From a virus (taxonomy: Duplodnaviria; Heunggongvirae; Uroviricota; Caudoviricetes), in IMG/VR virus record IMGVR_UViG_2703718828_000001, positions 1-41,597 of that record: a DNA stretch of 41,597 bases, one strand, 5' to 3'. Position 1 is the stretch's first letter; each line of letters starts with the position of its first letter. Shown one piece after another: positions 3,054 through 7,977 of this stretch. The notes below the pieces were generated by a model. It was not told the origin of the DNA. It worked only from the letters and a program-made list of their open reading frames with translations, and made no database searches. The position numbers and the translations under genes were made by a program.

Positions 3054-3733
3054 TGGGCTGCTCCTTCCAGTGAATCAGGCAGTTTTGTGTAATGCGTGAC
3101 GCCTCGCAGTGAATTGATAGAGCGGGAGTGGTCTGCAAGCCAGATTTTGTGGATATTGGTGTCGCTGCCTGCGCAGAAGTTGTGTTCCATCCACTTCGCG
3201 GAGCAGTATTGTGGGCCAACATCCGTTTCGTAGCGCACCCAATAGCGTCCAAACTCTGCCGGTTGATTGCCTTCAATCCAGACCTGCGTCCGCACTTCAG
3301 CCAGGTAGGCGTCGGTGGCCGGGGTTTCAACGCGGAAGTAAACCGGATCGCCGCCTTCAAAGTTACCAGGGTCATCGACCAGTGTTTCGTGCTCATCAGC
3401 AGAGTAGACCTCCTGACGAAGCAGTCCATGCTTCAGTGCCAGCTCCTGTATTTCCGCACCATCAGCGGAGCCACCTTGCCAAGCGATAGAGAGCAACGCA
3501 TCGACGAACGCCTTCAGCCCCGCATTCTCCGCAGCCATCGCCGCTAACCTGGCTTCCAGATTCTCAATGGTGATTTCTAACTGGCGACCGTAGCGTGAGG
3601 ACTCGGTGAGCAACTGATCTGACAGTGAGAGCTTGCGCACCAGGTAGGCAGAAAGCGTTTCACCAACCAAGAGATCGGTTGGAATGCACTTACCATTAAG
3701 AAGACCATTCATTTCTGTAATCGTAAATTTCAT
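3050..3733 (-). CDS. Hypothetical early-left protein
   Basis: 227-aa ORF, translationally coupled on both sides. Confidence 0.5.
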   Translation of the reverse strand: MKFTITEMNGLLNGKCIPTDLLVGETLSAYLVRKLSLSDQLLTESSRYGRQLEITIENLEARLAAMAAENAGLKAFVDALLSIAWQGGSADGAEIQELALKHGLLRQEVYSADEHETLVDDPGNFEGGDPVYFRVETPATDAYLAEVRTQVWIEGNQPAEFGRYWVRYETDVGPQYCSAKWMEHNFCAGSDTNIHKIWLADHSRSINSLRGVTHYTKLPDSLEGAAQ

Positions 3734-4560
3734 GCTGATGCTCCTGAACGGCTTGAGGCGATAGCTTTATGCTCGTCGATGATTTCCTGTACTTCTGCAT
3801 GAGCTAAACCTTTGAGAGTTATCACTCCTGTGTTACTGATTCCTGCCAGGCTTACCAGCTCAACCAGACGTCGCGCTTTCTTCACACTGATTTCGGGAGA
3901 AATGACGCTGCGGGTGACTTTCTTTTTCCCTTTAGCTGCAGCAGCAGCCTTGTCTTGTTGAAGCACATCTCCAGCCTTTTCGCCGTACTCTTTCACACGG
4001 CCAACAGCAACCTCGACAGAGACGGCCCCTGATTTAACCTCACGCTGAACATCATGATTAGCGGTACTGAGAAGCAGGAGTTTTTCGACGGTGGGCACAG
4101 ACTTATTGACCAGCTTTGCGATCTCGCTGGTGGTCTGGTTAAACGCGTTATGCAGTTCCTGGATAACCGCGGCCTGTTCCATATCGGATAATGGAAGCTG
4201 GTTATTGCTGGTCATGATGCGAGCCAGGCGCTGAACATCGTTACCGTTGAAAGGCATGATGTGGATGCGGTCTACAGGCTTTCCTGCTTCAGCGCAGCGA
4301 GCATAGCAACGACGACGGCGGTGACCTTCGACAACCCACACCCCACCTTCATCACGGGCGATAACTTCCAGCGGAGGTACTGAGCCACCATTCATCAGAT
4401 ATTCGAACAGGTCATCATCAGCCAGGCGGGTACGATCATCGTTGTCGTCACGCTTGTTGAAACCTTCGCGCACGTGGATATCGTCGAGACTGATGAACAT
4501 GCCGGTGTCGGTACGCTTGATGGTTCCGTCACGAGACATCAATTTAAATGAGTTGGCCAT
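3730..4560 (-). CDS. ParB N-terminal domain protein with helix-turn-helix
   Basis: ParB box-like VVEGHRRRRCYARCAEAG followed by HTH-like TSEIAKLVNKSVPTVEKLL; ATG at 4560 overlaps upstream TGA. Confidence 0.65.
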   Translation of the reverse strand: MANSFKLMSRDGTIKRTDTGMFISLDDIHVREGFNKRDDNDDRTRLADDDLFEYLMNGGSVPPLEVIARDEGGVWVVEGHRRRRCYARCAEAGKPVDRIHIMPFNGNDVQRLARIMTSNNQLPLSDMEQAAVIQELHNAFNQTTSEIAKLVNKSVPTVEKLLLLSTANHDVQREVKSGAVSVEVAVGRVKEYGEKAGDVLQQDKAAAAAKGKKKVTRSVISPEISVKKARRLVELVSLAGISNTGVITLKGLAHAEVQEIIDEHKAIASSRSGASA

Positions 4561-4919
4561 CACGCAACACCTTCGCTTAATACAGTCAGGGTTACAGGCG
4601 TGAGTTCGCGCAGTTCTCGCTGTGCTTCCAGCAGGTGCATATTGCTGCGGGTTTTGGTGTGACGCTCAACAATGCGATCGCACTCCTTGGCCCAGCTCGT
4701 AACGTCATCCCGAAGGGTGGCATTTTCAGCAGCAAGTTCCTTGCGCTGTTTCATTGCCTCGCACAGCGCCACGCTGGTGTAATCCAGGCGGTTCGCCAGT
4801 TCGGTCATCAGCTGAGCTGAAGCAACAGGCAGAAACTTAGCTGCGGTACGAGCTGCATCGATCAGTTGCTCGCGGGTCAGGCGTGGTTGTAACTCGGTGA
4901 CGTTCTGTGTGTTCGTCAT
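4560..4919 (-). CDS. Hypothetical protein
   Basis: ATG at 4919 with GGAG RBS (track ORF begins at an upstream GTG at 4952). Confidence 0.5.
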   Translation of the reverse strand: MTNTQNVTELQPRLTREQLIDAARTAAKFLPVASAQLMTELANRLDYTSVALCEAMKQRKELAAENATLRDDVTSWAKECDRIVERHTKTRSNMHLLEAQRELRELTPVTLTVLSEGVA

Positions 4920-4969
4920 TGTTAGTTTCTCCGTTATATAAGCGCTCTGCACAGCGCTGATTTTTGGCC

Positions 4970-5230
4970 TTACAACTTAAAAGAGGCCGCCTTGGTCTTT
5001 CGGGGTGTTGCGTTTTCGTTTAGTGATTTCGGTTTTAGAAACCTGCTTATCTGCCCAGGCTTTCGCATGCCGTAACACGTCGTCAAAAATCGCGCCTTTC
5101 TTGCTTGCCTGTGACATGCGTTTATACAAATCAAGCGCCTGCCACGCCCCCCCTGAGCCACCGAAGAGGAAAAGCCCTGTTTGATGAGCAATTCCTTCAC
5201 GTTCTTCTCAATAAATTCGAGGTGGTTCAT
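4970..5230 (-). CDS. Hypothetical protein spanning a C7 homopolymer; possible frameshifted or dual-frame gene
   Basis: ATG at 5230 with GGAGG RBS; two frames stay open for ~57 codons downstream of the homopolymer at 5147-5153. Confidence 0.4.
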   Translation of the reverse strand: MNHLEFIEKNVKELLIKQGFSSSVAQGGRGRRLICINACHRQARKARFLTTCYGMRKPGQISRFLKPKSLNENATPRKTKAASFKL

Positions 5231-5374
5231 CAGTCCTCCAGTGGAAAATCCGCTGAATTTTGGTTGCACGAATCCCTCGCCTGGTGGCGACTAAAAATAA
5301 AGGGGTTTCGTTTTAGTAAGCACCCAGCCTGGGCACTTAGTGAAACGGGCGACTGCAATCGCCTGTTAGCTTCT

Positions 5375-5459
5375 CCACAACTGAGAGCGCGTTCCGCTCG
5401 AAATTGCATTTAACGAACTGACACTTAGGTTAAAGGTCCAGAACGCGCTTTCAGTTGTG
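5375..5459. repeat. 19-bp inverted repeat (one mismatch) with ~46-nt spacer in the leftward early transcript
   Basis: ccacaactgagagcgcgttc at 5375-5394 versus gaacgcgctttcagttgtg at 5441-5459. Confidence 0.6.
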
Positions 5460-5564
5460 TAAAAGGGGCGGTCGACATAAGGACATTCAGAACTGCCGAC
5501 CGCCAAGACTACACACAGCATTTGTTGCAGTTACTACGGGTTTACCACGCTGGCTACGTGATAC

Positions 5565-5641
<77 letters not shown>

Positions 5642-5818
5642 AACTGGGAGCGCACTCCGCTTTTGTTTCACACCTGTCATCCACACTGGTTGATAAGGAG
5701 TACGCTCTCATGTTGTACGCCTGTCTTTTAACCACATCAGGCTCGGTGGATCCTGCTATTCCCCAACAACAAGGATTCGGTTAATCTGAAATCCCCAACA
5801 TTTGGATAGTGATCACGC

Positions 5819-6055
5819 ATGAAGCGCTCAGATGTTTTAACCCAGTGCCTTATTAATACCGGCTGCGGGCTTTCAGAAGCTGATATCCGACACGGCATCC
5901 GGACTACCTTCTCTGAAGAGTACCCAGATAAAAATTACGATTCCTGGGACATTGAGATCAGCGATCAGACAGCAAATCACATCATTAAAACCGTTGGCCG
6001 TGCTATGTGGATAAAAGTCGACCTATTTATCCGTGATCTCTGGGACGCCTACTGA
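5819..6055 (+). CDS. Hypothetical small protein, antisense to the leftward operon (uncertain)
   Basis: 78-aa ORF with weak RBS; 3' end overlaps the convergent minus-strand gene. Confidence 0.3.
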   Translation: MKRSDVLTQCLINTGCGLSEADIRHGIRTTFSEEYPDKNYDSWDIEISDQTANHIIKTVGRAMWIKVDLFIRDLWDAY

Positions 6056-6271
6056 TCCCAAAGGGGCGGAGCCAATCCCTCTAAAACCGGTCGCCATAGT
6101 GCGACCACATTTGTTGGCTTCAGCCTCCAAAGAGGTTTTATCTTTCTCCAGCGCTTCAATAACACCGCCCATAAACAATAGGTAATCGGCTGCGACTGCT
6201 GACTCTGTGAGTAAGGTCTGCTTCAGAACCCCATTAACCAAAAGCTCAATCCTGTTTGCGCTTGAACTCAT
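6023..6271 (-). CDS. Hypothetical protein, first gene downstream of pL (the position lambda N occupies, but not Arg-rich)
   Basis: ATG at 6271 with GGAG RBS; MSSSANRIELLVNG.... Confidence 0.45.
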   Translation of the reverse strand: MSSSANRIELLVNGVLKQTLLTESAVAADYLLFMGGVIEALEKDKTSLEAEANKCGRTMATGFRGIGSAPLGSVGVPEITDK

Positions 6272-6349
6272 CACCACTCCATCATGTGCCATATGCCGTT
6301 CTGCTTATTCTCCGCAGTTTCTGAATGATATTTCCTGCGGTACGAGATA

Positions 6350-6402
6350 AATGTAGGATAACTTACCTTTGGCTGTCAATACTAAAAGTAGGAAATCTTA
6401 CA
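6350..6402 (-). promoter_or_regulatory. pL-like leftward promoter with OL operator copies
   Basis: On minus strand a -35 TTGACA (plus 6374-6379), 18-bp spacer and -10 TACATT (plus 6350-6355); operator-like GTAGGATAACTTAC (6353-6366) and GTAGGAAATCTTAC (6389-6402). Confidence 0.6.
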
Positions 6403-6413
6403 TTTAGAGGTGG

Positions 6414-6440
6414 AAAAAAACCGACTGGATGTCGGCTTTT
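6414..6440 (-). terminator. Rho-independent terminator after the repressor gene
   Basis: Hairpin ccgac-tggat-gtcgg flanked by an A7 run (T7 on minus strand) just past the cI stop. Confidence 0.6.
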
Positions 6441-6452
6441 GAAAAGAGGGGG

Positions 6453-7109
6453 CTATAGGTCGGTTACAACTTGTTTTACGACACCAACAAGTTTGCAGTT
6501 TCCGTTTACTTCCAAAACTCGATAGTTTGGGTTCAGTGGTACTAGATACTTCAGTGGGCCATCGATGACAAACTTTTTTAAAGTTGCTTCAGTTGAGCCT
6601 TCAATTTGTGCCACAACGATCTTGCCATTTACTTCTTCAGGACTTCCATAGTCGGGGTCCACCACGACAAATGAACCTTCCGGTATACTGGGGGCGCCAT
6701 TAGGATTCGTCATCGAGTCACCACGAACGCGTAAAGCGAACCCCTCATCAGATATACACGCAGTAGTGAAAATCCACTCTGATATATCATTTTCGGTAAC
6801 TGGGGCGCCACTTTCAGTCCATTCGCCAGCCTGTACCCAAGACAAGACAGGTATTTTTTTTACACCAAACTTCTCAGTGGGCTTGAAGGTTGACTCACCA
6901 GTATCAGCATCACCGTTGCCAGTAATGATCCACTGTGGGTTAGTCTTTAACGCAGCCGCTAGTGCCTGAAGGTTCGACCCTCCCGGTTCATAGTCTCCGG
7001 ACTCCCACCCTGTAACAGTCACGCGATTTACTCCAACTAATTTGGATAAAACCGCTTGGGTAAGTTTCAGCTCTTTTCGCCGAGCGCGTATGCGTTCATT
7101 CATTTTCAT
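6453..7109 (-). CDS. cI: cI-like repressor (HTH plus LexA-type S24 autopeptidase domain)
   Basis: MKMNERIRARRKELKLTQAVLSKLVGV HTH; C-terminal GDSMTNPNGAPSIPEGSFVVVD motif; divergent from cro across the operator region. Confidence 0.85.
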   Translation of the reverse strand: MKMNERIRARRKELKLTQAVLSKLVGVNRVTVTGWESGDYEPGGSNLQALAAALKTNPQWIITGNGDADTGESTFKPTEKFGVKKIPVLSWVQAGEWTESGAPVTENDISEWIFTTACISDEGFALRVRGDSMTNPNGAPSIPEGSFVVVDPDYGSPEEVNGKIVVAQIEGSTEATLKKFVIDGPLKYLVPLNPNYRVLEVNGNCKLVGVVKQVVTDL

Positions 7110-7110
7110 G

Positions 7111-7175
7111 TAGGTAATCCTACCATTTTGTGATGTAGGAATCCTTGACCTAATAATGTAAGATATCCTACTATG
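7111..7175. promoter_or_regulatory. OR operator cluster with divergent PRM/PR promoters
   Basis: Three related palindromic sites: taggtaatccta (7111-7122), taggaatcct (7136-7145), taagatatccta (7158-7170); PR -35 TTGACC at 7145-7150 and -10 TACTAT at 7169-7174. Confidence 0.65.
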
Positions 7176-7208
7176 ATGTTGTCTGCATCTCTTACATATG
7201 GAGTGAAA

Positions 7209-7406
7209 ATGAAAAAAAATGATGTGATTTCTTACTTCGGTAGCGTTGGCAATGTAGCCAAAGCTTTGAACATCTCCCACGCTTCGGTTTCTGGATGGGG
7301 CGAAATCATACCGAAAGGCCGCGCTTTCGAAATTCAGGCGCTTTCTAAAGGGGCCCTCAAAGTAAACCCTTCACTTTATTTAAAGGCTAATTCATCAGCC
7401 GCTTAA
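7209..7406 (+). CDS. cro: Cro-like small DNA-binding regulator
   Basis: 65 aa starting MKKNDVISYFGSVGNVAKALNISHASVSGW (HTH-like); first rightward gene after OR. Confidence 0.65.
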   Translation: MKKNDVISYFGSVGNVAKALNISHASVSGWGEIIPKGRAFEIQALSKGALKVNPSLYLKANSSAA

Positions 7407-7431
7407 TCATAACTACCAAAGGGAAAACATA

Positions 7432-7977
7432 ATGGTAGACAGCATAAACACAGCGATTCGCCTTATGTGCAAGGCACACAAACACGGTCGTGTAGGCCTG
7501 GCTGCTGATCTTGGCATGACCATCGATCAATTTCACAACCATCTGTACCAAAAATGCGGCAGTCGTTTTTTTACGGTAGTCGAACTTGAACAGATGCAAT
7601 CCATTTCCGGCACGTCTTATCTGGCTGAGTATTTCGCTAAGTGCTGCGGAAAAATGCTGGTGGACATTCCTGTACCTGAGAGCATCGACAATGTCGATTT
7701 GTATGAAATCGATATGAAAGCGACGGTCGCAGCTGGCGAACTGGCTTCAGCAAAAGTTGCAGCTATTGCTGATGGTGTAATCGATATGAAAGAACGCCAG
7801 ACACTTTCCGATTTATTCAACAAGAAGTTGCGTCACCAGATTCATGGGTTTCTGGGGTTCATGGCGCTGTATGGGGTGAGCGTATCGGATCAGGCAGTGG
7901 ATGTTTTTATTTCTACCGGCAGAAAAGGTGACGCCCCGAGTGTGCAGCTCGGAGCGTCTGGCGCGCCGGTTCTTTAA
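7432..7977 (+). CDS. CII-like regulatory protein (CP76-type, tentative)
   Basis: 181 aa, directly downstream of cro with AAAGGGA RBS; assignment mainly by position. Confidence 0.45.
   Translation: MVDSINTAIRLMCKAHKHGRVGLAADLGMTIDQFHNHLYQKCGSRFFTVVELEQMQSISGTSYLAEYFAKCCGKMLVDIPVPESIDNVDLYEIDMKATVAAGELASAKVAAIADGVIDMKERQTLSDLFNKKLRHQIHGFLGFMALYGVSVSDQAVDVFISTGRKGDAPSVQLGASGAPVL

Follow-up and report, generated by a model that had tools for sequence, protein, structure and literature searches.

Genetic switches built on homopolymers are textbook matter in Neisseria, Haemophilus, and Campylobacter, and are considered rare in the Enterobacteriaceae; switches formed by intragenic poly-G runs are a classical theme in several pathogens. 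In phages, contingency loci have been described in agt of T2 and rIIA of T4 (Gomez, Barrick and Waters, bioRxiv 2025; PMC12633550); both are poly-A runs, and according to the authors none had been ascribed to phages earlier. A passage of the same paper also notes poly-G tracts in Campylobacter phage receptor-binding proteins, in the methylase gene of BPP-1, and in a PB1-like baseplate gene (PMC12633550). In hypervirulent Klebsiella pneumoniae, poly-G phase variation of rmpA shows a modal tract length of G10, with ON and OFF states scattered on the phylogeny (bioRxiv 10.1101/2025.09.12.675794). Here we consider a poly-G tract in a 41,597-nucleotide stretch of viral DNA (Caudoviricetes; IMG/VR record IMGVR_UViG_2703718828_000001), the whole of which is referred to below as the window. 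The tract lies in a small conserved early gene of lambdoid temperate Enterobacterales phages (phrog_4439, 84–85 amino acids), here called gene X. Comparison with its relatives makes it probable that the run is a hypermutable, contingency-type homopolymer and that the window carries an OFF allele. Literature searches turned up no account of gene X or of a conserved poly-G switch in lambdoid phages.

Gene X occupies positions 4977–5230 on the minus strand of the window, where it is split by the tract; its extent was assigned from open reading frames (ORFs), homologues, and a profile match. As read from the sequence, the gene starts at the ATG at 5230–5228, four nucleotides downstream of the Shine–Dalgarno sequence GGAGG (5235–5239, minus strand), and the same GGAGG context is found in two related loci (L007 and L070). 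The N-terminal segment (5154–5230, minus strand) comprises, in frame 0, codons 1–25 and the first two bases of Gln26, corresponds to predicted helix 1 and the start of helix 2, and reads MNHLEFIEKNVKELLIKQGFSSSVAQGG ahead of the run. The run itself (5147–5153) is C7 on the plus strand and G7 on the coding, minus strand, and lies within a coding region as the preliminary description had stated. Beyond it frame 0 (MNHLEF...AQGG, then RGRRLICINACHRQ...) enters a 58-codon Arg/Cys-rich tail (4970–5146, minus strand) that ends at the TAA at 4970–4972, so that the product of the G7 allele has 86 residues from the ATG, 28 native and 58 out of frame. The −1 frame after the run reads AWQALDLYKRMSQ...QGGLF, also written AWQALDLYKRMSQASKKGAIFDDVLRHAKAWADKQ...KDQGGLF, up to the TAA at 4977–4979, and the stops of the two frames are separated by 7 nucleotides. 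This C-terminal segment (4977–5146, minus strand, including its TAA, and in the −1 frame relative to the ATG) consists of a conserved core, RMSQASKKGxIFDDVLRHAKxWAxKQ, a basic disordered tail, and the terminal QGGLF. Both frames are as first described, the one Arg/Cys-rich and the other natural in appearance, and the latter is now seen to be the conserved C-terminal part of phrog_4439.

A single added G, giving G8, joins the two halves of gene X into an 84-residue protein, MNHLEFIEKNVKELLIKQGFSSSVAQGGAWQALDLYKRMSQASKKGAIFDDVLRHAKAWADKQVSKTEITKRKRNTPKDQGGLF. At this in-frame length the tract falls within codons 26–29 (CAG GGG GGG Gcn, Gln26-Gly27-Gly28-Ala29). It is the only run of seven or more G or C residues in the window, and nearly all G or C runs of eight or more in 855 kb of related sequence are the same tract. 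A scan of 4800–7500 for promoters and terminators revealed nothing convincing upstream of gene X, and a weak terminator-like match overlaps the tract. The notion that the tract might act as an internal Shine–Dalgarno sequence for a downstream start was set aside on inspection, since start codons just past it open only 4-codon ORFs.

The G8-restored protein has 142 homologues, almost all of 84–85 residues, in Citrobacter, Enterobacter, Klebsiella, Salmonella, Raoultella, and other hosts. Its residues 1–74 match phrog_4439, a family of “unknown function”, with an E value of 9.2e-32; no Pfam domain was detected in the protein or its homologues. The exact protein restored from the window gene is present in public assemblies (P0126), where three loci (L134–L136) encode it with a G8 tract and 2–5 synonymous differences. 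In an alignment of the proteins the variants Q-GGA, QGGGA, and Q--GA correspond to G8, G11, and G5, so that the in-frame G5 and G11 forms exist as annotated proteins.

The tract is spread widely. It is borne by copies from Klebsiella, Raoultella, Enterobacter, Citrobacter, Leclercia, Lelliottia, Atlantibacter, Phytobacter, and Kluyvera, and also from Pluralibacter, Trabulsiella, Pantoea, Pectobacterium, Izhakiella, Erwinia typographi, Biostraticola, and others. It persists in some homologues that have different N-termini and only ~50% identity, and an uninterrupted run is missing only in the most distant homologues, those of Edwardsiella, Proteus, Serratia, Sodalis, and Erwinia endophytica. 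In Klebsiella phages with 72% DNA identity, gene X lies between cII and O with a G9 tract and with its downstream half in the +1 frame, where G8 would restore the reading frame. All three deposited Klebsiella phage records are OFF (G9, G9, and G7). Complete genomes of E. coli were dropped as a clean reference set, because only 2 of 5,426 carry gene X, one with G6 (OFF) and one with G8 (ON). A record named Elizabethkingia phage EKP1 (L131, 1501–1758) contains a homologue, 43% identical, whose tract reads AAG GGG GGC (G6, in frame) and whose C-terminus is QPGLF; the layout of cI, cro, and replication genes in this record is typical of enterobacterial lambdoid phages and odd for a phage assigned to a Bacteroidota host.

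For the comparison of tract lengths, which had been proposed at the outset, loci were gathered from viral contigs (80), from GTDB species-representative genomes (39), and from further phage and E. coli records, about 130 in all; a main clade of 99 loci is the base of the counts and of the gene tree. Over the ~130 homologous loci the tract spans G6–G11 and is centred on the in-frame length, G8, which is also the mode. Within the main clade G8 occurs in 46 loci, G9 in 22, G7 in 21, G10 in seven, G6 in two, and G11 in one. Thus 47 loci are in frame and 52 are out of frame, 24 of these in the +1 relation (G9 and G6) and 28 in the −1 relation (G7 and G10).

Length differs even between copies that are otherwise the same. 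A haplotype of eight loci, identical over 180 nucleotides outside the tract, includes four copies with G7, one with G8, and three with G9, and a second haplotype, identical over the same length, carries G8, G9, and G10. Among pairs identical over 180 nucleotides, 23 of 40 (57%) differ in tract length, a proportion near the 69% for all pairs. The neighbour-joining tree with 99 tips requires at least 42 changes in tract length, compared with 46.8 ± 2.1 after shuffling of the tips, and the fastest synonymous sites on the same tree change 8–19 times. Variation in tract length is real and is inherited, occurs far more often than point substitution, and is the source of nearly all frameshifts in gene X; a frameshift clearly away from the tract occurs in just one of the ~130 loci.

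That locus is on a chromosome of Kluyvera genomosp. 3 (L103, 3130–3140), where the tract is G8 and in frame and the gene is broken by a one-nucleotide deletion at codons 44–45 (AAAGGGAGG to AAGGGAGG, by comparison with L090). In Citrobacter phage Omnitron (L130, ~1520–1530) the tract is G8 yet the gene is out of frame, a base having been lost directly 3′ of the tract; the junction is GGGGGGGGAATCC, versus GGGGGGGGCATTCC in relatives. A 93-residue homologue from Klebsiella quasipneumoniae (P0061) has a nine-residue tandem duplication, in which GFTQAVAQG occurs twice and ends at the tract, and this suggests that larger replication-slippage events are also anchored there.

The coding sequence on both sides of the tract is under strong purifying selection, and this holds for OFF alleles as well. 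The ratio of nonsynonymous to synonymous substitution rates (dN/dS) is ~0.02 across the 35 codons that follow the tract and ~0.11 across the 25 that precede it. When the loci are divided by state, the downstream and upstream values are 0.019 and 0.115 for ON alleles, and 0.023 and 0.102 for OFF alleles. Furthermore, the downstream frame is open to its normal stop in all 52 OFF alleles. Because this frame is intact throughout and its dN/dS is the same as in ON alleles, the OFF alleles must be evolutionarily young or else regularly reverted.

The homopolymer itself displays a second kind of constraint. At the third positions of the codons for Gln26, Gly27, and Gly28, 96 of the 99 loci have G, with two or three changes on the tree, whereas at ten other four-fold sites the frequency of the major base is 0.39–0.77 and 8–19 changes are found. 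Two other conserved glycine codons use GGG in 3 and in 21 of 76 loci, a count from which G7 alleles were omitted. Interrupted tracts are rare, being limited to CAA in L015, GGA in L056 and L060, and three interrupted OFF variants. This constraint at synonymous sites argues that the run is maintained, and is more than tolerated.

Gene X displays several of the features by which homopolymer contingency loci are recognized: an uninterrupted intragenic run, typically of seven or more G or C residues, that shifts the frame by ±1, length polymorphism among close copies, an intact ORF in OFF alleles, and a tract kept beyond neutral expectation. The preliminary description had offered slipped-strand phase variation as one of three explanations, and it is this one that agrees with lengths of G6–G11, with about half of the copies out of frame in both directions, with switches between otherwise identical alleles, with intact OFF ORFs, and with the synonymous constancy of the run. 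Slipped-strand mispairing during replication of the prophage or phage genome would add or drop one G. With G8 (or G5 or G11) a full-length three-helix protein would be made, and the gene would be ON. Lengths of G7 and G9, or the less common G6 and G10, would truncate the protein after residue 28 and give it a meaningless tail, and the gene would be OFF; the second open frame of the window would then be the real C-terminal two-thirds of the protein. Switching would presumably be reversible and of high frequency within a lineage, and the tract may be kept because a mixture of ON and OFF states benefits the phage, a form of bet-hedging over a protein that would help in some hosts or stages but be costly or open to detection in others.

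Could the out-of-frame records simply be miscalled? A sequencing indel was among the original suggestions, and if the true run were always G8, both the window and the other out-of-frame records would reflect sequencing or assembly error. Homopolymers are error-prone on several platforms, which may have produced most of the assemblies, and tract length lacks phylogenetic signal, as would be expected of random errors. However, the G7 allele of the window is 100% identical over 1,284 nucleotides to contigs from two unrelated runs (SRR11582210 and ERR15609877), and one contig recurs in at least 20 samples. As many as 622 contigs, complete chromosomes included, carry the exact 49-residue product of the G9 allele of Klebsiella; several 33-residue G9 products are found on 26–51 contigs each; and G7 and G10 products recur too. 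The contigs with such OFF products come from NCBI, JGI, ENA, and Logan. The +1 and −1 states are equally common, unlike the usual bias of errors toward deletion. An A7 run common to 10 loci shows no variation, nor do several A6 runs in the same contigs, and A8 and T8 runs inside the cI and cro genes of the window leave both ORFs intact. The annotation of G5 and G11 in-frame variants as proteins points in the same direction. For the window allele sequencing error is essentially excluded, and as a general account of the variation it seems very improbable. Programmed recoding is also improbable, if less so. By this explanation, slippage of RNA polymerase or ribosomal frameshifting on the G run would yield the full-length protein, a second isoform, or both from out-of-frame alleles, and the exact tract length would matter little. 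The sequence G_GGG_GGG in the window has the register X XXY YYZ and formally qualifies as a −1 slippery heptamer, downstream purifying selection is as strong in OFF as in ON alleles, and a slippage site, too, would be expected to conserve its homopolymer. For Neisseria there has been discussion of leaky expression from poly-G genes that are out of frame. OFF alleles of gene X may be expressed at a low level. Known programmed frameshifts keep one frame configuration, but at gene X the relation is not fixed (0 in 47 loci, +1 in 24, and −1 in 28), and the in-frame G8 is the mode. With all three frame states common, the design cannot be a fixed shift in either direction, −1 or +1; nor is an out-of-frame arrangement conserved, as programmed transcriptional slippage would demand, and the run is of G. 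In E. coli transcriptomes, insertions at homopolymers all fall in A/T runs, and G/C runs are “not prone to slippage” (PMC5574713). A stimulatory RNA structure is not apparent: the minimum free energy of the 121 nucleotides that start at the tract is −34.6 kcal/mol, no better than the mean of −33.4 kcal/mol for shuffled sequences (z = −0.40), and an Rfam search around the site returned tRNA only, with no RNA element at the tract. Nor does a second isoform appear to be conserved. The preliminary description had judged two frames open over ~57 codons to be unlikely by chance, yet codon shuffling of the true frame of the window leaves the alternative frame open in 12% of trials (P ~0.12), and the Arg/Cys-rich frame is open to the end of the gene in only 17 of the 99 loci (17%), usually closing after 10 or 23 codons; for the other shifted frame the figure is 4–21 codons. 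In other G7 and G10 loci frame 0 stops at 51–52 residues, and among viral contigs 86 residues are reached only by the window and L042. Frame-0 tails range among loci from 33 to 110 residues (33, 36, 49–52, 86, and others) and are unrelated in sequence. The Arg/Cys-rich tail is an accident, a by-product of the shift, and it is not a conserved coding frame; this disposes of a dual-coding, two-isoform reading, and the nonfixed frames and the absence of structure in the shuffling test dispose of a −1 programmed frameshift with a stimulatory structure. Programmed frameshifting into two isoforms, the third of the original suggestions, is not supported; the preliminary description had itself named a lack of conservation in the alternate frame as grounds for refutation, and for the Arg/Cys-rich tail that lack is what the homologues show. 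Recoding is ranked low because all frame states are common, the tails are unrelated, and homopolymer insertions in E. coli transcripts were found in A/T runs only.

A more serious rival, though still an unlikely one, is a neutral hotspot or ordinary pseudogene. If gene X were an accessory gene left unexpressed in the lysogen, frameshifts would accumulate passively in its error-prone run while the prophage is carried, the window copy would be one that has been inactivated, and no selected switching need be invoked; the snapshot would look much the same if the gene were silent in the lysogen and its hotspot largely neutral. Several observations agree with such an explanation and weigh against a selected switch. 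If frame were irrelevant, 33% of the loci would be in frame, and the 47% seen is only a modest excess; the out-of-frame G10 (seven loci) is commoner than the in-frame G11 (one locus). In Klebsiella, one OFF allele is fixed across a very large number of assemblies, the 622 contigs mentioned above; because OFF alleles are so widespread, OFF states can persist by clonal expansion, and switching may be slower than at classical contingency loci. The gene is dispensable enough to be OFF in every deposited Klebsiella phage record, and the ordinary frameshift of the Kluyvera copy arose independently of the tract, so some copies do decay. G8 is at the short end of the tracts usually accepted as phase-variable, and we infer reversibility within a clone from the comparison of assemblies. 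On the other hand, a tolerated liability should erode synonymously, and the tract positions do not: their constancy, with two or three changes where comparable sites have 8–19, is the main argument against a neutral hotspot. The persistence of the tract at ~50% identity beside different N-termini is likewise difficult to reconcile with passive accumulation. All of the OFF alleles keep a downstream frame constrained as in ON alleles, and since they are intact, OFF states must be short-lived relative to sequence decay or be regularly reverted. A contingency-type homopolymer remains the probable explanation.

What the full-length protein may do is suggested, in part, by its C-terminus. An AlphaFold2 model built with 89 homologues (mean predicted local distance difference test score, pLDDT, 69.7) has helices at residues 3–18, 22–40, and 46–70, followed by a disordered basic tail. 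A Foldseek search of this model against the PDB and BFVD gave no significant fold match, and a sequence search of the PDB gave insignificant matches only, with no solved relative. In ~88 of the 99 loci the protein ends in a pentapeptide Q-x-G-L-F (QGGLF, QPGLF, QQGLF, or QAGLF; 4977–4994 on the minus strand of the window), located at the end of the tail where pLDDT is below 50. The motif that binds the β sliding clamp is Q-φ-x-[L/M]-[F/L], it often lies at a disordered C-terminus, and Pol II ends in QLGLF (PMC11139829). The Q, L, and F of the gene X pentapeptide fit this motif and position 2 is not aliphatic, so the fit is partial. In Klebsiella-type phages, gene X is directly upstream of the replication genes. 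Adjacency to the replication module in many phages, together with the QxGLF in a disordered tail, suggests that the protein may interact with the host sliding clamp, which we offer as a lead and not as a finding.

A bolder proposal joins this lead to the tract. The tract might be a selected bet-hedging switch with which temperate lambdoid phages control a small early protein that docks on the host β sliding clamp through QxGLF. The reason would be either that the protein redirects or blocks host replication or that a host defence senses it. We consider this combined proposal doubtful. If it were true, each lysogen population or burst would hold both expressers and non-expressers, and gene X would be both the first conserved contingency locus to be reported from temperate enterobacterial phages and the source of a new phage protein directed at the clamp.

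Taken as a whole, the window is a mosaic, mEp390-like temperate phage, and gene X lies just to the left of its lambdoid immunity region, which includes an S24/helix-turn-helix repressor (6453–7280), a P22-type Cro (7173–7406), and a CII-like gene (7432–7977). Gene X is followed by orf119 (phrog_14171; 4560–4919, minus strand) and then by a ParB-like gene (3730–4563), which is the usual downstream context in phages of the window type. About one-third of the loci have gene X directly after cII and ahead of replication genes (O and a DnaC-like loader, or DnaB); in the remaining two-thirds or so, the window included, it precedes orf119 and ParB. OFF alleles are found in both contexts.

Other features of this region of the window may be recorded. 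The A8 and T8 runs at 6854–6861 and 7212–7219, one in the cI-like repressor gene and the other in the cro-like gene, could also be mutable sites of the lysis–lysogeny switch, given the phage poly-A contingency loci that have been reported. A tRNA-Arg(UCU) gene (5565–5641, minus strand) lies upstream of gene X on the same strand. It is present, ~330 nucleotides upstream, in some relatives only (L006, L010, L020, L038, and L055), and its behaviour is that of an optional tRNA, carried by the phage for the rare codon AGA. Between the tRNA and the repressor gene is a 78-residue ORF (phrog_10348, of unknown function; 5819–6055, plus strand), followed by terminator-like hairpins at 6089–6137, that looks like a moron inserted in the left part of the immunity region.

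A poly-G switch in gene X would extend the phage contingency loci to temperate lambdoid phages on evidence from natural populations, the tract being conserved over a range of hosts that reaches from Klebsiella to Pantoea and Pectobacterium, with about half of the copies OFF. It would also direct attention to an uncharacterised early protein, often encoded beside replication genes, on whose expression the phage seems to gamble, and which is attractive for functional work. A practical consequence concerns annotation. Pipelines call gene X as fragments of 33–51 residues or miss the gene, and hundreds of public records hold such fragments. The 49-residue product of the Klebsiella G9 allele (L001 and L002, in the cluster of P0166), for example, is annotated as an independent “hypothetical protein”.

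Comparison with known systems clarifies what is distinctive about this locus. Programmed −1 frameshifting, as in the lambda G/GT tail chaperone and dnaX, resembles gene X in having a slippery run and a second frame that continues downstream. In those systems, however, the frame relation is fixed, the slippery site is conserved, and both products are functional, whereas gene X occurs in all three frame states, needs no shift when the tract is G8, and has tails that are not conserved. A closer likeness is offered by the receptor-binding proteins of Campylobacter Fletchervirus, in which, as cited in a passage of the T2/T4 paper, G7–G11 tracts in phage genes generate subpopulations (PMC12633550). 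As that passage presents them, these genes are structural and concern host range, and the phages are virulent and infect a genus in which poly-G switches abound; gene X is a small non-structural early gene, and its hosts belong to a family where such switches are considered rare.

With rmpA, gene X shares an intragenic poly-G tract in an enterobacterial host, a conserved modal length, a scattered distribution of ON and OFF states, and truncation after the tract (bioRxiv 10.1101/2025.09.12.675794). The two differ in that rmpA is a regulator carried by a virulence plasmid or an integrative and conjugative element, has a G10 mode, and has a phenotype demonstrated by experiment, while gene X is a phage gene with a G8 mode that is known from sequence comparison. 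The T2 agt and T4 rIIA loci are similar in principle, since there too a homopolymer in a phage ORF undergoes ±1 slippage to give reversible ON/OFF frameshifts, which have been proposed to serve as bet-hedging against host defences (PMC12633550). Those tracts are poly-A, they belong to virulent T-even phages, and they were established by reversion assays and deep sequencing of laboratory populations (PMC12633550); the word “temperate” does not appear in that paper, and “prophage” appears once. The tract of gene X is conserved across genera and at synonymous sites, a feature beyond what was shown for the T-even loci; it is poly-G, it is found in an early gene of temperate lambdoid phages, and its record is one of natural variation over more than 100 prophages and phages.

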